Assembly: GCA_040256005.1 (NCBI GenBank)
Contig: JBDZWC010000056.1
Span: 1-18,146, forward strand
Length of the DNA stretch: 18,146 nt
Direction: 5' to 3'
DNA from: Deinococcaceae bacterium
Lineage (GTDB): Bacteria; Deinococcota; Deinococci; Deinococcales; Trueperaceae
Below, one piece after another: positions 3,490 to 11,871 of this stretch. The first letter of the stretch is position 1; each line of letters starts with the position of its first letter. Both the position numbers and the translations under genes were made by a program. The notes under the pieces were generated by a model. That model was given only the letters and a program-made list of their open reading frames with translations, made no database searches and was not told the origin of the DNA.

Positions 3490-5535
3490 GTGGGCGTCGA
3501 GTCGACAAGGACCACCAGATCCAACGAGGCCCCCGGCTCGCACGTCGTGTGGTCTTCGGAGTCCGTCCCGGCCCCGTTCCCCAAGCACATCGAGCTGGCG
3601 CTCGCGAAGCTGACGGAGCGCCCGCCGCGAGGGGGCGACTGGGTGCACGAGGTCAAGTTCGACGGTTACCGCCTTGCCGCGCGCCTGAAGGACGGCGCCG
3701 TGCAGCTCATCACCCGCAACGGCCTGGACTGGACCGACAGGTTCCCGAGCGTCGCGGCTGCCGTGAAGGAGCTGGGCGCAGAGACGGCCGTGCTCGATGG
3801 TGAGGTCATCGCCGTCGGAGCGGACGGCAAGCCGGACTTCGGTGCGCTGCAGCGCGCCGCCCAACCGCGCTCGGCCAACCCGAGGGCAGGCCGGGCGCGC
3901 CTCAGCTACCAGGTCTTCGACCTCCTCTACATGGACGGCCGCGACTACCGCCCCGCGCCCCTCGAGGAGCGCAAAGCGGCGCTCAGGCGGCTGCTGCAGG
4001 GCGTCCGCGGCGCGCTGCGCTACACCGACCACCTCGAGGTGTCCGGCACCGACGTCTACGAGCACGCCTGCCGCCTCGGTCTCGAGGGCGTCGTGTCCAA
4101 GCAACTGGGCTCGCCGTACCGCTCCGGCCGCACCGACGACTGGCTCAAGACGACCTGCCTGCAGACGGACGACCTCGTGGTAGGCGGGTTCACCGGTCCG
4201 CGCGGCTCGCGCACCGGCTTCGGGGCCCTGCTGCTCGGCCGCCCGGTGCCCGGCGGTGGTCTGCGGTTCGTGGGCAAGGTGGGCACGGGATTCGGCCGCG
4301 GTGGTATCGCGGCGCTGGCGGAGCGCCTCGACCCCATCACGACGGACATCTCGCCTTTCGTCGAGCGGCTGCCGGCCGACGCGATCAGGACGGGCGTCAC
4401 CTGGGTAGAACCGCGGCTCGTCGTGGAGGTCGCCTACTCCGGCGTCACCGACGGCGGCAGGCTGCGCCACCCGCGCTACGGTCACCTTCGCGAGGACAAG
4501 GACCCATCCGAGGTGGCGCCCGCGCCGGCGGACGCGGACCACGTGCCCCTGGCAGCGAGCGACCCGGACGACGAAGCTGGTGAGCATGGAGGCGAGAGCG
4601 TGGCCGAGCCCGTGGTGAAGCGAGGCAAGAGCGAGGCGGAGGTGGCCGGCGTCCGGCTCACGAACGCCGGTCGCGTGCTCTACCCGGAGCAGGGCGTCAC
4701 CAAGTTGGACCTGGCCGAGTACTACGCGGCCGTGGGCGAGGAGCTACTGCGCCGGGCGGCGCGGCGGCCCCTGGCTCTGGTCAGGTGCCCCGAGGGCACG
4801 GCTCAGCAGTGCTTCTACCAGAAGCACCCCGGTCCCTCGTTCGCCCCCGGGCTGCCGCGGATCCCCATCCAAGAGAAGGAGGACGTGGACGACTACGTGT
4901 ACCTGGAGTCCGTGTCCGACCTCGTGTCGCTCGTGCAGCTTGGTGTGCTGGAGGTCCACGCATGGGGTAGCACCGTCGACCATCTGGAGCAGCCGGACAT
5001 CCTGGTGTTCGACCTCGACCCAGGTCCCGGCGTGAAGCTCGACTACGTCAAGACGGTCGCCCGACGGCTCAGGGACTTGCTCACGCGGCTGGGCTTGGGC
5101 GCGTTCCTGCGCGCCACCGGGGGCAAGGGCCTCCACGTCGTCGTGCCGCTCACGCCGGAGGCCGACTGGGACGAGGTCAAGGGCTTCGCAAAGGCCATCG
5201 CCGACGCCTTGGCCGCGTCGGACCCCGACAGGCTCACCACCAACCTCTCCAAGTCCAAGCGCGACGGGAAGGTCTTCGTCGATTACCTGCGCAACGGCCG
5301 GGGCTCGACCGCCATCGTCAACTACTCGACGCGTTCGCGCGAGGGCGCTCCGGTGGCGGTGCCGCTGCGGTGGGAAGAGCTGGGCCGGCTCGAGCACCCG
5401 GGCGCCTACGACGTCGCGGGGGCTCGCAAGCGCCTGGCCGCGCTCAAGCAGGACCCGTGGGAGGGGTTCGAGGAGTCCGCGGTGCCGTTGTCGCGGGCGC
5501 TGGCGTCGCTCTCGGACCTGGAGCCGCCGTCGTGA
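3490..5535 (+). CDS. ligD: DNA ligase D, ligase + primase/polymerase domains, no phosphoesterase domain evident (681 aa)
   Basis: Ligase motifs EVKFDGYR, VLDGEV, VFDLL, EGVVSK, OB domain ending LRHPRY. Polymerase motifs RLTNAGRVLYP, LVRCPEG, VFDLDP, TGGKGLHV, FVDYLRNGRGST. TAGCTT at 3479-3484 lies 5 nt before the GTG. Confidence 0.95.
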   Translation: MGVESTRTTRSNEAPGSHVVWSSESVPAPFPKHIELALAKLTERPPRGGDWVHEVKFDGYRLAARLKDGAVQLITRNGLDWTDRFPSVAAAVKELGAETAVLDGEVIAVGADGKPDFGALQRAAQPRSANPRAGRARLSYQVFDLLYMDGRDYRPAPLEERKAALRRLLQGVRGALRYTDHLEVSGTDVYEHACRLGLEGVVSKQLGSPYRSGRTDDWLKTTCLQTDDLVVGGFTGPRGSRTGFGALLLGRPVPGGGLRFVGKVGTGFGRGGIAALAERLDPITTDISPFVERLPADAIRTGVTWVEPRLVVEVAYSGVTDGGRLRHPRYGHLREDKDPSEVAPAPADADHVPLAASDPDDEAGEHGGESVAEPVVKRGKSEAEVAGVRLTNAGRVLYPEQGVTKLDLAEYYAAVGEELLRRAARRPLALVRCPEGTAQQCFYQKHPGPSFAPGLPRIPIQEKEDVDDYVYLESVSDLVSLVQLGVLEVHAWGSTVDHLEQPDILVFDLDPGPGVKLDYVKTVARRLRDLLTRLGLGAFLRATGGKGLHVVVPLTPEADWDEVKGFAKAIADALAASDPDRLTTNLSKSKRDGKVFVDYLRNGRGSTAIVNYSTRSREGAPVAVPLRWEELGRLEHPGAYDVAGARKRLAALKQDPWEGFEESAVPLSRALASLSDLEPPS

Positions 5536-6320
5536 GCGCCAGGGCGATCTGGAAGGGCGTGCTCCGGCTCGAGGACGTCGAGGTGCCCGTCAAGCTGTAC
5601 TCGGCGATCGAGGACAAGCGGGTCTCATTCCGGCTCCTCCATCGCGAAGACGGCGTGCCCGTGAAGCAGGTGATGGTGAACCCCGACACGGGCAAGGTCG
5701 TCGAGTACGAGGACATACAGCGCGGATACGTGACCCCGGAGGGCCGCATCGTCAGCCTCGATCCGTCCGAGCTCGATGAGCTCGAGCCCGAGCCGTCGCG
5801 CGACATCGAGGTCCTGCGCTTCGTGCCGCCTGACGCCATCGAGCACCGGTGGTTCGAGCGTCCCTACTACCTCGGCCCGGACGGTGACGCCGACGCCTAC
5901 TTCGCGCTGGCGGCGGCCCTGGCTCGGGTGGAGCGGGTTGGCGTCGCCCGCTGGGTGATGCGGGCCAAGGAGTACCAGGGCGCCCTCCGTCTCCACGAGG
6001 GCTACCCCATGCTCGTAACGCTCAAGCACGCCGAAGAGGTGCTGCCCCTGGAGGAGTTCGAGCCGCGGTCCGAGAAGGACCTCGACGAGAAGCAGCTGAA
6101 GATGGCCAGGCAGCTCATACAGATGTTGGCGGACGATTTCGAGCCGGAGGCGTACCAGGACGAGTACCGCGAGAGCGTGCTGGCGCTCATCGAGAGCAAG
6201 CGGGAAGGCAAGAAGGTACGCCCGAAGAAGGCGCCCAAGCGCCCGCGGACCGACGACCTCACCGCAGCCCTGGAGCGTAGCCTGGCGGCCGGGGGCGACA
6301 AGGCGGCTGCCAGTGCCTAA
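5532..6320 (+). CDS. ku: NHEJ protein Ku, paralogue 1 (262 aa)
   Basis: RAIWKG...VPVKLYSAI...FRLLH, RGY, FERPYYLGP, YQDEYRE, DLTAALERSL. GTG 5532 overlaps the ligD TGA (GTGA). The track's upstream extension to 5370 overlaps ligD. Confidence 0.93.
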   Translation: MSARAIWKGVLRLEDVEVPVKLYSAIEDKRVSFRLLHREDGVPVKQVMVNPDTGKVVEYEDIQRGYVTPEGRIVSLDPSELDELEPEPSRDIEVLRFVPPDAIEHRWFERPYYLGPDGDADAYFALAAALARVERVGVARWVMRAKEYQGALRLHEGYPMLVTLKHAEEVLPLEEFEPRSEKDLDEKQLKMARQLIQMLADDFEPEAYQDEYRESVLALIESKREGKKVRPKKAPKRPRTDDLTAALERSLAAGGDKAAASA

Positions 6321-7242
6321 GGCCGGAGCCAAGTCCACGAGGGCCAAGCAGTCCTCCGGCTCCAAGAAGGAGGCCAAGGGAGCGTCCGAGGGCAAGGGCG
6401 GCAAGGCGAAGGGCGCGAAGGGCGAGGGGAAGAGCCGCACGCCCCGTGGACGGCCCGTCTGGTCCGGCACCCTGGCGTTCGGACTGGTGACCCTCCCCGT
6501 CGAGCTCTACCCCACCACCAGGCCCGGCGGGATCTCGCTGCGCATGATCGCTCCGGACGGTACCCCCCTGTCTCGCCGCTACTTCTGTGAGGCTGACGGG
6601 GAGGTACTCTCCGCCGACGAGATCGTTCGCGGGTACCCCGTGGGGGACGACGAGTTCGTGATGGTGGAGGACGAGGAGCTCGAGGCGCTCGATCCGGACC
6701 GTTCACGCGTCATAGACCTCGACGTCTTCGTGCCTCGTGCTGACCTCGACCCGAGCTATGTGCAGAACACGTACGTGCTCCTGCCCGGGAAAGACGCGGC
6801 CACCGCCTACCGCTTGCTGGTGGCCAGCATGGAGGAGGAGGACCGTGCCGGCATCGCCACCTTCGTGATGCGCGGTACCTCTTACCCCCTGGCGATCGTC
6901 TCGGTAGGGGGCACGCTGAGGGGCATGACGCTGAGGTACCACGACGAGGTGCGCTCGCCCGAGGACGTGGGCCTGCCCGAGCTCGAGACAGCCGACGTGG
7001 ACGACGTCAAGGCGATCGAAGCCGCCGTCAAGGCACTCGCGGCCGACGCCCTGGCCACGTCCGAGTTCCAGGACGAGCGCAAGGAACGCATCACCAAGCT
7101 GGTCGAGAAGCGGCTCAAGTCGGGCAAGGGGGTACACGAGGCACCGGAGGAGGAGGAGCCGTCGGACGACGAGGACGAGACCGTCATCGTCGACGTCATG
7201 CAGCTTCTCAAGGAGAGCCTCGGGAAGGCCGCGCGGGCCTAG
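6313..7242 (+). CDS. ku: NHEJ protein Ku, paralogue 2, with Lys-rich N-terminal extension (309 aa)
   Basis: RPVWSGTLAFGLVTLPVELY, EIVRGY, AYRLL, GIATFVMR, DVMQLLKESL. 8-nt overlap with the paralogue 1 stop. Confidence 0.93.
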   Translation: MPKAGAKSTRAKQSSGSKKEAKGASEGKGGKAKGAKGEGKSRTPRGRPVWSGTLAFGLVTLPVELYPTTRPGGISLRMIAPDGTPLSRRYFCEADGEVLSADEIVRGYPVGDDEFVMVEDEELEALDPDRSRVIDLDVFVPRADLDPSYVQNTYVLLPGKDAATAYRLLVASMEEEDRAGIATFVMRGTSYPLAIVSVGGTLRGMTLRYHDEVRSPEDVGLPELETADVDDVKAIEAAVKALAADALATSEFQDERKERITKLVEKRLKSGKGVHEAPEEEEPSDDEDETVIVDVMQLLKESLGKAARA

Positions 7243-7287: not shown

Positions 7288-8475
7288 CTAGGCCGCAGGA
7301 CGCCGGGCCCGGGACAGGGCCGTCCGCGCCCTCAACACCTTCTCCTCGGCCTCCTCGACGCTGTCCGCCGTCGCCGTCAGATGACCCATCTTGCGTCCCG
7401 GCCGGGCTTCCGACTTGCCGTACAGGTGCAGGGCGACACCCGGCACGCGCAGCGCTGCGGCTAAGTCAGGGTCGCCGTCCGACCACAGATCACCGAGCAG
7501 GTTGGCCATCGCCGCGGGCCTTGGCAGGACCGTCGAGCCCAGCGGCAGCCCGCACACGGCCCTCAACTGCTGCTCGAACTGGCTCGTCTCCGCCGCTTCG
7601 ATCGTCAAGTGTCCAGAGTTGTGGGGCCGCGGGGCGATCTCGTTGACCAGCAGCTCGCCGGCCCGGTCGAGGAAGAACTCCACGCAGCACAGGCCGACCA
7701 GCTCCAACCGTGCGGCGACCCGCTCGGCCTCCTCCCTGGCCGCCGCGACGACAGCCGGGCCGACCGGCCCCCAGCTGGTGACGCCGCCTGTGAACGGGGC
7801 GAGCGTGACGTCGAGCACCTGGCCCACATGACGGTTGAGGAAGGGCGCGTAGGTCGCCGTGTCCCCGTGCGGGCCACGCGCCACCACGACAGAGAGCTCC
7901 GCTGCCAGGTCTACGCGCTCCTCCACGACGAGCGCGCCCGCTCCGGCCAGGGCGGTCACGGCGGCCCTCACCGCGTCGCGGTCCTCGATCACGACCTGGC
8001 CCTTGCCGTCGTAGCCGAAACCCGCGGTCTTCACCACGCACGGCACACCTACCTCCTCCACGGCGGCAGGGACCTCGCTCACGTCGCCCACGAGCCGGAA
8101 CCGCGCGGTCGGGATGCCGTGCAGGCGCAGGAAGACCTTCTCGCGGCCGCGGTGCTGGGTGGTGTGGAGCGCTGCCGGTGACGGCCTGACGAGGCCCACC
8201 TCGGAAGCCGCCTCCAACGCGGCGCTGGAAACGTTCTCGAACTCGAACGTGAGCACGTCGACGGACTCGGCGAAGGCGCGCATGGTCCTCTCGTCGTCGA
8301 GACGCGCCGAGAAGTGGCGGTCGGCGACGGCCGCCGCGGGCGGGCTGTCGCCGGGGGCGAGAACGTTGAAGCCGAGGCCCATGCGCCGCGCCGCCAGGCC
8401 CAGCATCCGCCCCAACTGACCCCCGCCCACCACGCCGATCGTCACGCGGGGTAGGAGACGACCGCCGGGGCTCAT
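7288..8475 (-). CDS. purK: N5-carboxyaminoimidazole ribonucleotide synthase
   Basis: [58 protein letters not shown] overlap with the upstream fusion gene. Confidence 0.97.
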
Positions 8476-10010
8476 GGCTCGAAGCTGCTCGACGGCAACG
8501 TGGCGCTCTCGGCAGCGGCCGCCTGCTCGCGCCGGTAGTCGATCAGGCGCTCGCGCAGCTCCGGCCGCGTCAGGGCGAGGATCGCCACGGCCATGAGCGC
8601 CGCGTTGAAGGCCCCTGCCTCCCCTATCGCCAGCGTCCCCACCGGCACGCCCTTCGGCATCTGGACGATCGACAGCAGCGAGTCCACGCCGGACAGCGCG
8701 GAGCTGCGCACGGGGACGCCCAGCACCGGCAGGTGCGTCTGCGCGGCGATCATGCCGGGGAGGTGCGCGGCTCCGCCGGCGCCCGCGATGATCACCTCCA
8801 CGCCACGGTCCGCCGCTCCTTCGGCGAAGGCCGCCATGCGCTCCGGCGTGCGGTGGGCGGACACGACCTTGCAGACGCGAGGCACCCCGAAGCCAGCGAG
8901 GACCTCGTCGGCGTGCCTCATGGTCTCCCAGTCGCTGGCGCTGCCCATGACCACGGCCACGAGCGGAGCCTCGCCCCCGGCTCCGTCCGCGCTGCGGTCC
9001 TCACGCTCGGCGGTGGCGCGGTCCAGCCGGTCCCTTACCGCCAGCCAGGCGGGCCCGTCCGCCGGCCTCTCCACCAGCACCTCCCCCAGTCCCAAGCCGT
9101 CGAGGTGACGGACCGCGGCGTAGAGCTCGCGTCCGAACCCGACAGGGTCGCTCGGCAAGACCAGCCAGCGAGCGTCCGCCGGCACCGGTTCAGTGCCGGT
9201 GAAGCGGGCGAAGGGAACGGCGCCTGTCGGCGGCCGGCGTGCGATGACACCCGTTTTGGCGCTCACGCCGCGCTCGAGGTCCTCGCTGCTCGCCTGGCGG
9301 AGCGGGGTAGCGGGGGCGTAGTGACGCGGCAGCGTCCCGGGGGCGCGCGGTGCCCCCGGCCCCGGCCCGGTCACGGGCACCACGGTCGCGATCCGTTCAG
9401 CCGGAAGCGAGCCGGGCCTGAGGAGGCGGACGGTCCCGTGCGAGAGGTCCAGGATCGTCGACTCCAGACCGTGGCGGGTTCGGCCGCCATCGAGCACGAC
9501 CATCTCGTCATCGTCAGGGAACTCGTCCATGACGTGACTGGCGTCCGTGGGGCTCACCCGACCGAAGCGGTTCGCCGATGGGGCTACCACGGCTCCACCG
9601 AACGCCGACAACAGCTCAGCCGCGACCGGGTCCGCGGGGACGCGGACCGCCACGGTGTCCTGGCCTCCCGTCACCGCCCGCGGCACGTCGTCGCGAGCCG
9701 GCAGCACCAGGGTCAGCGGTCCGGGCCAGAACCTGGCTGCCAGCTCCGCTACCACCCTGCGCGTCTCGTCGGAGACGGCCGTCTCGTCCGCCCAGTCCCA
9801 CAGGTGGCCGGCGTCCGGCAGGTGCACGATGAGTGGATGGTCGGCCGGCCTGGCCTTGGCAGCGAAGACCCTGGCAACGGCTGCCCCGTCGCTGGCCGAG
9901 GCTCCCAGGCCGTAGACGGTCTCCGTCGGGAACGCCACCAGTCCGCCGGCACGCAGATGCGCGGCCGCGCTGGCGATGCCGCTCGGGTCGGCGGGCAGGA
10001 GGCGTGCCAT
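8472..10010 (-). CDS. Fusion of L-threonylcarbamoyladenylate synthase (Sua5/TsaC) and N5-CAIR mutase PurE (512 aa)
   Basis: One frame from ATG 10010. Sua5 motifs [54 protein letters not shown]. PurE motifs [42 protein letters not shown]. Confidence 0.9.
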
Positions 10011-10046: not shown

Positions 10047-10331
10047 ATGTTCGGCCTGTTCCGACGCCAGGACCCGCGTTTCAAGGAGGACGGCAACTTC
10101 CTGCTCTGCCAGGTGAGGACGGACGCCCATGGCGAGGTGATCAAGGTTCGCCTCTCCAAGACGTCGGAGATGAGCGTCACCGGCGGCGGGTACTTCGTCC
10201 GCAAGGCGCTCGTCGGCCCCGGCAGCCTGGACAACGCGACCCTCGAGGTCACGCTGAACCGCTCGCACAAGGTGCTGAACGCCGTGTGCGACGGTGGCGA
10301 CCTGCTGCGGGTCAGCGAGTGGGAGGCGTAG
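10047..10331 (+). CDS. Hypothetical protein (94 aa)
   Basis: Fills the gap between the fusion gene and the regulator; GC-rich third codon positions; -10-like TAGACT 6 nt before ATG; natural-looking sequence. Confidence 0.85.
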
Positions 10332-10383
10332 GGCGGTCCCCTAGGCGCGCCCGCGCACGGTGCGGGGACGCCCGTACTGCTAT

Positions 10384-10401
10384 CATCGGCCCGTGCCAAT
10401 G
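10384..10401. promoter_or_regulatory. Putative operator over the regulator's -10 and start codon
   Basis: CATCGG-CCCGTG-CCAATG, the same pattern as 11612-11629. Overlaps extended -10 TG-C-TATCAT (hexamer 10381-10386). Confidence 0.6.
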
Positions 10402-11454
10402 AACGAAGACGCGATCCTGTCGTTCTCCGCTCCGCTCGTGGGCCGGAGGCGACTGATCGTCACGCCCGCGCCGGTGCTCGAGCTGGCTTACGCGTACTAC
10501 TACCTCAAGCGCCGGCTGGACCGCGACCGGGACGGTGAGCTCACCTGGGTGCGGCAGCTCCGGGAGAGCGGCGGCGCCACCGTAGACGCCGTCAGGCGGT
10601 CGTGGGAGAAGGGCGAGGTGATGGCGCTCGGCCACGAGCTGCTGCTGGCAGCTTGCAGCCTGGGCTACGCCCTGGACGGGACGCCGGACAGGTTCCTGGC
10701 GGACTTCCCCTCCCTGCCCGGCCGGGTGCTGGAGGGACTGGCTCAGATCGCCAAGGACATGGACGCGGACACCCCGGAGGAGCGCGACAAGAAGTACGCC
10801 CAGCTGGAGTCGCAGCTCGAGGGCCTGAGCCGGCCCGACGTCGCCCACGGCATCCAGGACGCCCTGACGGCGCTGTGGGGGTTCCTGCAACCGGCCTGGG
10901 AGCGCGAGGGCAGGGCGGTGAGCGAGGCCGCCGCCAGGGAGTTCGAGGCTGAGGTGGAGCTGACCGGCGACCTGCTGTCGGCGCTGCCCGAGCACCACTT
11001 CGTGCGCTTCGAGGGGGCGGCCGACTCGTTCCGGAAGGCCCAGGAAGAGGGCGGCCGGTTCGTCGTGGTCCCGCTCTTCTTCGCCTCCCAAGGCGGCTTC
11101 CACCTCGACTTCGGTGGCGTCGATTACGTGGGTTACGGGGTCCATGCCGAGAGCCTCTTCGCGCAGCAGCAGACCGAGCTGTCGGACCTGGCGGGCAAGC
11201 TCAAGGCGTTCAGCGACCCTACTCGCCTCCTCCTGATGGTGCTCATCGGCCGGCTGTCGCAGTTCCCGCTCACCGTGGGGGACCTGGCCAAACAGGTCGG
11301 TGTCAGTCAACCCACGACCAGCGGTCACCTGAAGCTCCTCAAGGAGATGGGCTTGGTCGAGGTCGCGAAGAAGGGCAACCGCTCCTACTACCACCTCGAC
11401 GAGCGTTCCGTTCGCGACGTCATAGACGAGCTGCAGCGCTCCCTGGTCGGCTGA
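10393..11454 (+). CDS. ArsR/SmtB-type winged-helix regulator with large N-terminal domain (about 353 aa)
   Basis: C-terminal KAFSDPTRLLLM...TVGDLAKQVGVSQPTTSGHLKLLKEMGLVEVAKKGNRSYY. Start is GTG 10393 (6 nt after TATCAT) or ATG 10399. Confidence 0.9.
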   Translation: MPMNEDAILSFSAPLVGRRRLIVTPAPVLELAYAYYYLKRRLDRDRDGELTWVRQLRESGGATVDAVRRSWEKGEVMALGHELLLAACSLGYALDGTPDRFLADFPSLPGRVLEGLAQIAKDMDADTPEERDKKYAQLESQLEGLSRPDVAHGIQDALTALWGFLQPAWEREGRAVSEAAAREFEAEVELTGDLLSALPEHHFVRFEGAADSFRKAQEEGGRFVVVPLFFASQGGFHLDFGGVDYVGYGVHAESLFAQQQTELSDLAGKLKAFSDPTRLLLMVLIGRLSQFPLTVGDLAKQVGVSQPTTSGHLKLLKEMGLVEVAKKGNRSYYHLDERSVRDVIDELQRSLVG

Positions 11455-11577
11455 GCCGGCCCTGGCCTGTCTGGCCTGCCGCGCCACGCGTCCGGCGGCG
11501 GTCGCGGCTAGGACGCGTCCGGCCGTCAGGGCCGCGACGGTTCGAACGCGAACCCCACCTATATCGCTCGCCACCTA

Positions 11578-11607
11578 TTGACATCTATCTCGGCAGGCTC
11601 CTATAGT
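11578..11607 (+). promoter_or_regulatory. Near-consensus sigma-A promoter
   Basis: TTGACA (11578-11583), 18 nt, TATAGT (11602-11607) in a locally AT-richer stretch. Confidence 0.85.
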
Positions 11608-11611
11608 TGTT

Positions 11612-11629
11612 CATAGGAGGTGGCCGATG
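11612..11629. promoter_or_regulatory. Putative operator over the expected TSS, SD and ATG of the small ORF
   Basis: CATAGG-AGGTGG-CCGATG; contains SD AGGAGGT at 11615-11621. Confidence 0.6.
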
Positions 11630-11743
11630 TTCTACACGGTCGAACAGCTTAGGCAGCTCACCCAAGACCGGATCGCCAGCAACGTTCGGTCGGCGAAGGC
11701 TGCCCACAGCACGCGAATCAGGCGAGACAACTACAGCCGCTGA
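11627..11743 (+). CDS. Small protein, 38 aa: MFYTVEQLRQLTQDRIASNVRSAKAAHSTRIRRDNYSR
   Basis: AGGAGGT 5 nt before ATG 11627, TGA at 11741-11743, with its own promoter and terminator. Too short for the ORF track. Confidence 0.8.
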   Translation: MFYTVEQLRQLTQDRIASNVRSAKAAHSTRIRRDNYSR

Positions 11744-11768
11744 ACACCGGCGGCAGCTACCCCAGGCC

Positions 11769-11817
11769 AGCGCGCTCCACCCCTCCTCCAACCAAGGGTG
11801 CGGCGCGCTTCTCCTTT
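11769..11817 (+). terminator. Putative intrinsic terminator after the small ORF
   Basis: AGCGCGC-TC-CACCC pairs with GGGTG-CG-GCGCGCT, followed by TCTCCTTT. Confidence 0.7.
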
Positions 11818-11871
11818 AACGGTTCATAGGTCTACACCTACGCGGCAGCGTAGGCGACTGCGGCAGCGGTG

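Follow-up and report, generated by a model that had tools for sequence, protein, structure and literature searches.

The window (the whole stretch of DNA that was analysed, 18,146 nt long) carries on its plus strand a gene for a 351-aa regulator (10399..11454), preceded by a 94-aa ORF (10047-10331) and followed by an unannotated 38-aa ORF (11627..11743) that encodes a basic, predicted helical peptide ending in Arg. The nearest homologues of the regulator carry Trueperaceae names. The 94-aa ORF has no match in Pfam or NCBIfam, and it lies upstream of the regulator gene in 61 of the 69 Deinococcota loci described below. The regulator comprises an N-terminal arm with an ILSF motif (residues 1-12; 10399..10434, plus strand), a domain resembling DUF5937 up to about residue 258, and a C-terminal ArsR winged helix-turn-helix (HTH). 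Elsewhere in the window, translations revealed a non-homologous end-joining cluster (3490-7242), in which two Ku-like genes come after a LigD-like ligase/primase gene, and an apparent fusion of a Sua5/TsaC-like threonylcarbamoyl-AMP synthase with PurE in one frame (8472-10010).

Five putative operators lie at the regulator and small genes. They were ranked with a matrix (PWM) derived from 69 sites at 24 other loci and scanned across the 3.1-Mb genome, and the resulting ranks (1, 3, 4, 7 and 13) are partly circular because the consensus used to select the training sites was read off loci including the present one. An extended -10 element, TG-n-TATCAT (10378..10386, plus strand), kept in position in orthologues, presumably belongs to the regulator promoter, and operator 1 (ATCGG-N6-CCAAT, 10385..10400, rank 3) covers its end and the regulator start codon. 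A near-consensus sigma70 promoter is predicted before the small ORF (TTGACA-18-TATAGT, 11578..11607, plus strand; 11 of 12 matches, shuffle mean 0.1). Operator 2 (11563..11578, rank 4) abuts its -35, the weaker operator 3 (11589..11604, rank 13), whose counterpart is strong in many relatives, lies between -35 and -10, and operator 4 (ATAGG-AGGTGG-CCGAT, 11613..11628, rank 1) contains the Shine-Dalgarno (SD) sequence AGGAGG and the small-ORF start codon. Beyond the ORF, the predicted fold of 11613-11825 includes a terminator-like hairpin on the plus strand (11770..11817), whose loop is C-rich (CCTCCTCCA, 11782-11790) and whose tail is U-rich. The terminator scan, which has a loop limit of 8 nt, did not call this hairpin with its 13-nt loop. 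Operator 5 (11826..11841, rank 7) comes after the hairpin and is followed here by no same-strand gene, the chorismate mutase gene aroH being convergent. A mini-ORF on the minus strand that would start inside operator 5 was dropped by eye, as its length differs between the two closest loci.

The first-pass annotation had described a shared 18-bp palindrome, CATnGG-N6-CCnATG, and both exact copies lie where it placed them (10384-10401 and 11612-11629), as do a one-mismatch copy (11825-11842) and weaker copies at 11562-11579 and 11588-11605. The sites thus stand, but the conserved core is shorter, orthologous loci reducing it to the 16-bp ATMGG-N6-CCKAT. The genome scan that had been suggested for the motif gave no genome-wide enrichment. 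At up to 2 mismatches the 18-mer has 10 matches in the window against 6.63 expected, with 27 of 200 shuffles as high, and its 4 exact copies in the genome compare with 0-6 for other spacer lengths of 0-13. Matrices with shifted spacers match equally often (17 genomic PWM matches at 14 or above, versus 7-25), and the regulon is therefore local. Five of the 13 genome sites scoring at least 15 fall inside a 1.46-kb stretch of the locus. The signal is one of local clustering and positional conservation. Perfect sites in 21 relatives number 1-9 each, compared to 0-5 in a reversed control, several of them at the regulator locus; 20 off-locus sites inspected had no common target, and four other candidate regions of the present genome gave nothing convincing. 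The worry that an SD and an ATG might create the palindrome by themselves was answered by counting, as only 2 of 183 genomic GGAGG-N6-ATG contexts form the full palindrome. A perfect isolated ATAGG-N6-CCTAT was seen between convergent genes in another genome (G178:C109:33689-33704, L271), in a setting like the TTCATAGG context of operator 5.

Conservation was assessed from 79 loci, among which L036-L106, minus the truncated L045 and L105, supply 69 distinct full-length Deinococcota regulators; these are kin, and the counts that follow are not statistically independent. The adjacent small ORF and palindrome that were to be sought beside homologues are present at 48 of the 69 loci, where an operator lies exactly at -14 from the regulator ATG and downstream operators with a small ORF (hereafter, the cassette) are found in every case. 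Among these 48, the SD/ATG operator departs by at most 2 mismatches in 46, an operator abuts the -35 (CCKAT-TGAC junction) in 24 and a late operator occurs 3' of the small ORF in 29. The remaining 21 regulators have no operator, no cassette and no N-terminal arm. As ORF calling required an operator, spacing to aroH was measured as an independent check, and the gap before this gene is 6-82 nt in all 21 cassette-less loci. Of the 27 cassette loci in which aroH is included, 26 have a gap of 245-591 nt and one has a gap of 2906 nt.

In a quick tree, which carries a long-branch warning on L102 and L069, the cassette-less regulators fall into two nested clades, one of 15 rows and one of 6, both supported at SH-aLRT 99. 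The arm pattern is present in 46/48 regulators with the cassette and in 0/21 without it, and a deletion that removed the promoter and start region could equally account for its loss. All 21 peptide-less regulators retain the recognition helix, VSQPTxSGHL, without change. Within the 6-row clade, W160 (present in 48/48 regulators with the cassette), H199 (45/48) and A178 are changed in 6/6 and E28 in 5/6. Two patterns detected no relocated cassette in G021, G024 and G025, whose regulators lack it, or in G178, which was included without a check of its regulator; the peptide profile returned one look-alike, in G021, without operator. Three short stand-alone actinobacterial ArsR proteins (L110, L112, L113) have an identical helix (VSQPTVSGHL), and their loci show tandem ATAGG-N6-CCGAT-like sites and a divergent gene, glyoxalase/VOC-like by eye. 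As they combine the same helix with like sites, they support a link between helix and operator.

The proposal that the hidden 38-aa ORF is a genuine coding sequence is borne out by purifying selection and by the alignment of its orthologues. For codons 2-27 at 12 loci of the genus, pN is 0.31 and pS 0.58, with pN below pS in 64 of 66 non-independent pairs. Fifty orthologues (long sequences cut to 40 residues) align from Met1 almost gap-free with a mean column identity of 32%. F, L or Y is usual at position 2, hydrophobic residues occupy 7-8, 11-12, 16, 19 and 23, and Arg is conserved at 15 (39/50) and 21 (36/50), the hydrophobic and Arg positions falling at helical spacing. Arg is also the C-terminal residue of 34/50 peptides (background 17.6%), and the last codon is CGC in 31. 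The peptide of the present locus is basic (8 K+R, 3 D+E), matches nothing in Pfam or NCBIfam, and falls in the ESM Atlas only into unnamed clusters, under 0.9. Its predicted transcript (11613-11825, about 200 nt) folds better than all 200 shuffles (z -3.03), the fold also pairing the SD of the ORF with the 3' tail. By eye, the hairpin loop carries an anti-SD-like TCCTCC in 9 of the 12 genus loci, and also in L044 and L059. RNA data from four runs yielded sparse contigs only, possibly DNA.

Two other small ORFs resemble this one. Contig C52 of the present genome (minus strand, start near 5331; L286) encodes a further small protein of this helical type, 62 aa long with a C-terminal Arg, which ranks second among 430 SD-led small ORFs. 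It has its own TTGACA/TAGCAT promoter, without ATMGG operator, and heads two genes with N-termini that we take to be SHOCT-like. The look-alike in G021 (C1:2496838-2496945, L279; E 0.0025) also lacks the operator and follows, by eye, an amino-acid-dehydrogenase-like gene. The inverted repeat in its upstream region is another one, TACCTGA...TCAGGGTA, and hints at a separate pairing of regulator and peptide.

Reading from the ATG at 10399, the regulator has the roughly 260 extra N-terminal residues that had been ascribed to it, with HTH_5 at residues 273-321 only, and full-length homologues are mostly 320-365 aa. The winged HTH matches PF01022 (45.9 bits, cut-off 22) and NF033788 (68.6, cut-off 55), and in the predicted model it superimposes on the solved ArsR structure 6j05_B (Z 13.8, rmsd 2.5, 90 aligned); the SdpR family NF033789 gives 48.4, below its cut-off of 100. 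Single-chain models reached pLDDT 88 (full-length) and 86 (N-domain), the first 10-15 residues scoring low and the arm under 50 in both. The modelled N-domain (258 aa) is mostly helical with a small sheet. Fold searches with the full model gave HTH matches only, and the N-domain model had no Foldseek match at E 0.001 and a best VIA Z of 5.8 (rmsd 7.0, 69 residues), values that indicate for the model neither a known match nor a new fold. The single Cys (residue 86) lies outside the HTH, so that there is no Cys metal site as in ArsR/SmtB proteins; an LPxHHF motif in the N-domain remains compatible with a possible His/Glu site. The N-domain is acidic (42 D+E versus 27 K+R).

The relation of this domain to DUF5937 is remote. 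PF19361 (DUF5937, cut-off 27.1 bits) matched neither the regulator, nor its genome, nor any of 53 N-domains, and it was absent among the families listed for a profile of distant homologues (25 of 41). The same profile aligned with six DUF5937 proteins by hhalign at 98.85% (E 4e-17) over 297 columns including the HTH, compared to 72% over 48 columns for the N-domain alone, and a single DUF5937 protein aligned with the regulator in the HTH only. The top ESM Atlas match of residues 1-262 was a DUF5937 cluster, at 0.91. From these comparisons the N-domain is assigned as a remote relative of DUF5937, the full-length homology including the HTH, and the regulator belongs to ArsR through its HTH only and to a DUF5937-like group through remote homology.

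The first-pass annotation had called the small protein the only visible local target. This holds within the window but not in relatives, where operator 5 is found at the promoters of other genes, and contig C20 of the present genome adds a candidate. At loci with a co-directional gene after the cassette, the late operator precedes tldD in, for example, L066 and L093 (TldD confirmed by Pfam), a Peptidase_S58 gene in L053 and an AHSA1-PDZ-DinB gene in L072 and L079; in L078 the latter gene directly follows the small ORF. These AHSA1-PDZ-DinB_2 fusion proteins, encoded 3' of the cassette in L072, L078 and L079, come from Calidithermus, Meiothermus and a Deinococcales genome. In the own genus, as well as in L088, L089, L092 and L096, this site is kept before the convergent aroH with no clear gene to control; it could represent a relic, serve in looping or act as a roadblock. 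On C20 (631-816, L031), a perfect single operator (PWM rank 2) covers the SD/ATG of a 57-aa ORF of membrane-anchored appearance, which precedes a gene for a 638-aa membrane protein without Pfam match. Of 7 other genomes with the 57-aa ORF only 2 retain the site, one of them imperfectly, so that it could be a recent recruit.

Homologues beyond Deinococcota were reached by a profile search that gave 105 clusters at E 1e-30 or better. Eight matches at E 1e-20, six of them full-length, came from 251 genomes of the Chloroflexi (the phylum of G186). With an additional copy in G189 there are seven full-length loci of Chloroflexota type, and each carries a divergent ORF of 55-75 aa whose start lies 61-97 nt upstream. 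Six of them show a matrix-scoring site at the start codon; the core peptide profile places the divergent ORF first in L151, L152, L155 and L156, and not in L153, L154 and L174. L107 and L109 have operators with no peptide detected nearby. In samples of 120 and 300 genomes from the phylum of G187, the only matches were to canonical DUF5937 or to short ArsR proteins, and the peptide profile found no peptide at the canonical DUF5937 loci scanned.

Among 66 metagenome loci, the first 56 were examined and provided 40 distinct regulators, 36 of them with ATG starts. The 36 ATG-start distant homologues conserve A at -14 (34), T at -13 (36), G at -11 (35), T at -10 (34) and C at -2 (31). After four mis-called starts had been dropped, a profile trained on Deinococcota peptides only gave its top rank to the small ORF beside the promoter in 19 of 36 loci, compared to 2.9 expected from its share. 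An operator abutting TTGACA recurs in several downstream-type loci (L202, L206), and no convincing peptide was found in L189, L191, L193, L194, L214 and L215, where the flank is present. The regulator N-terminus of distant homologues differs from the Deinococcota arm. By sequence comparison, distant homologues keep the start-codon operator, often with a similar helical small ORF placed downstream or divergently.

Comparative evidence, together with operator placement and conservation, strongly supports the earlier proposal that the regulator represses its own gene and the small ORF, and this putative local regulon very probably operates through ATMGG-N6-CCKAT. The winged HTH would bind the operators and block both promoters, through one site on the regulator gene and three on the small-gene promoter. 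The basic amphipathic peptide may bind to the acidic DUF5937-like domain, assisted by the N-terminal arm. Peptide binding might then free the DNA and create a positive loop, which could conceivably reset once peptidases destroy the peptide. The small protein had been put forward as ligand, anti-repressor or co-repressor, and co-loss of the N-terminal arm favours a role of this kind. Anti-repression was chosen since no other target is as constant as the peptide in the two gene arrangements, since the peptide is too loose in sequence for a conserved machine, complements the N-domain in charge, is lost together with changes in the regulator N-terminus, and because DNA-binding residues survive without it. 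Moreover, reset of the peptide by peptidases would explain the tldD and S58-peptidase genes under the same operator in some lineages. As a whole, the mechanism of a two-gene module with an anti-repressor peptide reset by proteolysis is our tentative preference, with a likelihood a little short of even. Against it, no peptidase gene lies 3' of operator 5 in the own genome; several homologues (L107, L109 and the six metagenome loci named above) show no peptide close by; the arm may have been lost merely along with the promoter and start region, and distant homologues have another N-terminus; most of the N-domain is kept in peptide-less regulators and must there have another ligand or role; and small-protein look-alikes without operator (C52, G021) indicate that the class may be one of general effectors.

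The last two observations sustain the strongest alternative, which we consider possible and somewhat less probable than anti-repression. In it, the regulator would repress itself and the small gene, its N-domain would sense some other signal, and the peptide would be output only and act elsewhere, for example on a protease, the ribosome or nucleic acid. The N-domain and HTH do persist in 21 cassette-less regulators, look-alikes do head other promoters without operator, a strong promoter with three operators would suit a tightly held effector, and the conserved C-terminal Arg could mark another partner. However, so loosely conserved a peptide (mean column identity 32%) would be a poor fit for binding to conserved cellular machinery, neither peptide-less clade retains the arm, and several N-domain residues that are fixed elsewhere are changed in one of the two.

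Pairing, co-loss and charge would fit equally a labile co-repressor, whose removal by a drop in translation or by more proteolysis would open the regulon; such a negative loop is on general grounds simpler to keep stable than a positive one. We consider this reading quite improbable, as the intact recognition helix of all 21 peptide-less regulators argues against an obligatory co-repressor, unless paralogous peptides substitute, and inducing tldD or a peptidase once the peptide is gone is harder to rationalise. It is very doubtful that the active product is instead the roughly 200-nt RNA with its C-rich anti-SD loop, or translation in cis, the peptide sequence being secondary. The significant fold, the TCCTCC of the loop and the recurrent CGC last codon speak for such a function, but the loop motif is mostly limited to the genus and close kin, the ORF is under purifying selection, and the helical pattern recurs in distant, divergently arranged loci. 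A last reading, in which SD and ATG sequences produce the palindromes by chance and the ORF is spurious, agrees with the background frequency of the motif genome-wide, but is effectively refuted by the SD-context count and by positional conservation, as sites 2, 3 and 5 overlap neither SD nor start codon and the operator position is fixed at -14 although spacers vary freely.

Were the anti-repressor mechanism correct, it would provide the first ligand and function for a regulator domain without solved fold match or literature, and it would assign a function to 26-90-aa ORFs of a family whose scanned members lack any Pfam match. If tldD expression were linked to it, this would also be relevant to how the TldD/PmbA peptidases are controlled. 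A broader version, which we regard as unlikely, is that of a cross-phylum sensor in which the labile basic peptide is a sentinel, a test substrate for TldD/PmbA and S58 capacity. If that capacity were insufficient, the accumulating peptide would bind the DUF5937-like domain and thereby open its own and the peptidase genes. In that case, intracellular peptide receptors would gain a new class in the DUF5937-like domains, whose ligands would be encoded by the many unannotated Arg-rich helical small ORFs found next to regulators of this type. In any case, the module is testable: the operator is defined, the 38-aa peptide can be synthesized, two lineages have lost the cassette naturally, and the cultured hosts Calidithermus roseus (L067) and C. 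chliarophilus (L072) carry it.

Our literature search found no description of the module; supplementary small-protein catalogues could list such ORFs, and a term search of the accessible portion of PMC11672702 gave no match. The module of regulator, operator and small protein is real, conserved and apparently undescribed. For DUF5937 itself, no characterisation was found in the literature.

Regulators that combine DUF5937 (PF19361) with an HTH have the same layout and length as the present one, but PF19361 misses this regulator and the canonical DUF5937 loci scanned showed no peptide by profile. ArsR/SmtB proteins are typically stand-alone proteins of about 100-120 aa, and their metal sensors have a Cys-based metal site in or near the HTH. 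With members of that family (ArsR, CzrA, SmtB, NolR, HlyU, SrnR) the regulator shares a C-terminal winged HTH and, as a putative operator, a palindrome over its own promoter, but it differs by about 258 extra N-terminal residues, by the absence of a Cys metal site, by a 5-6-5 operator and by a recurring partner gene for a small basic peptide.

Two characterised systems have counterparts of the proposed partnership. SdpR of Bacillus subtilis is an autorepressor of ArsR type, and a protein encoded in its own operon relieves the repression (PMC2910880). That protein, SdpI, sits in the membrane and sequesters SdpR upon binding the external toxin SdpC. The analogy would lie in an ArsR-type autorepressor with a partner from a linked gene, whereas the partner here would be a soluble 38-aa peptide and the neighbours are the 94-aa ORF, the 38-aa ORF and aroH, with no sdpI. 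MexR of Pseudomonas aeruginosa is a winged-helix repressor allosterically inactivated by the antirepressor peptide ArmR (PMC10458429), and armR is controlled by another repressor, NalC (PMC3290565). MexR is a MarR protein, and the present peptide gene is under the same repressor that its product would inactivate, in contrast to armR under NalC. The likeness would be one of function, and the two likely work alike, as a repressor paired with its antirepressor peptide.
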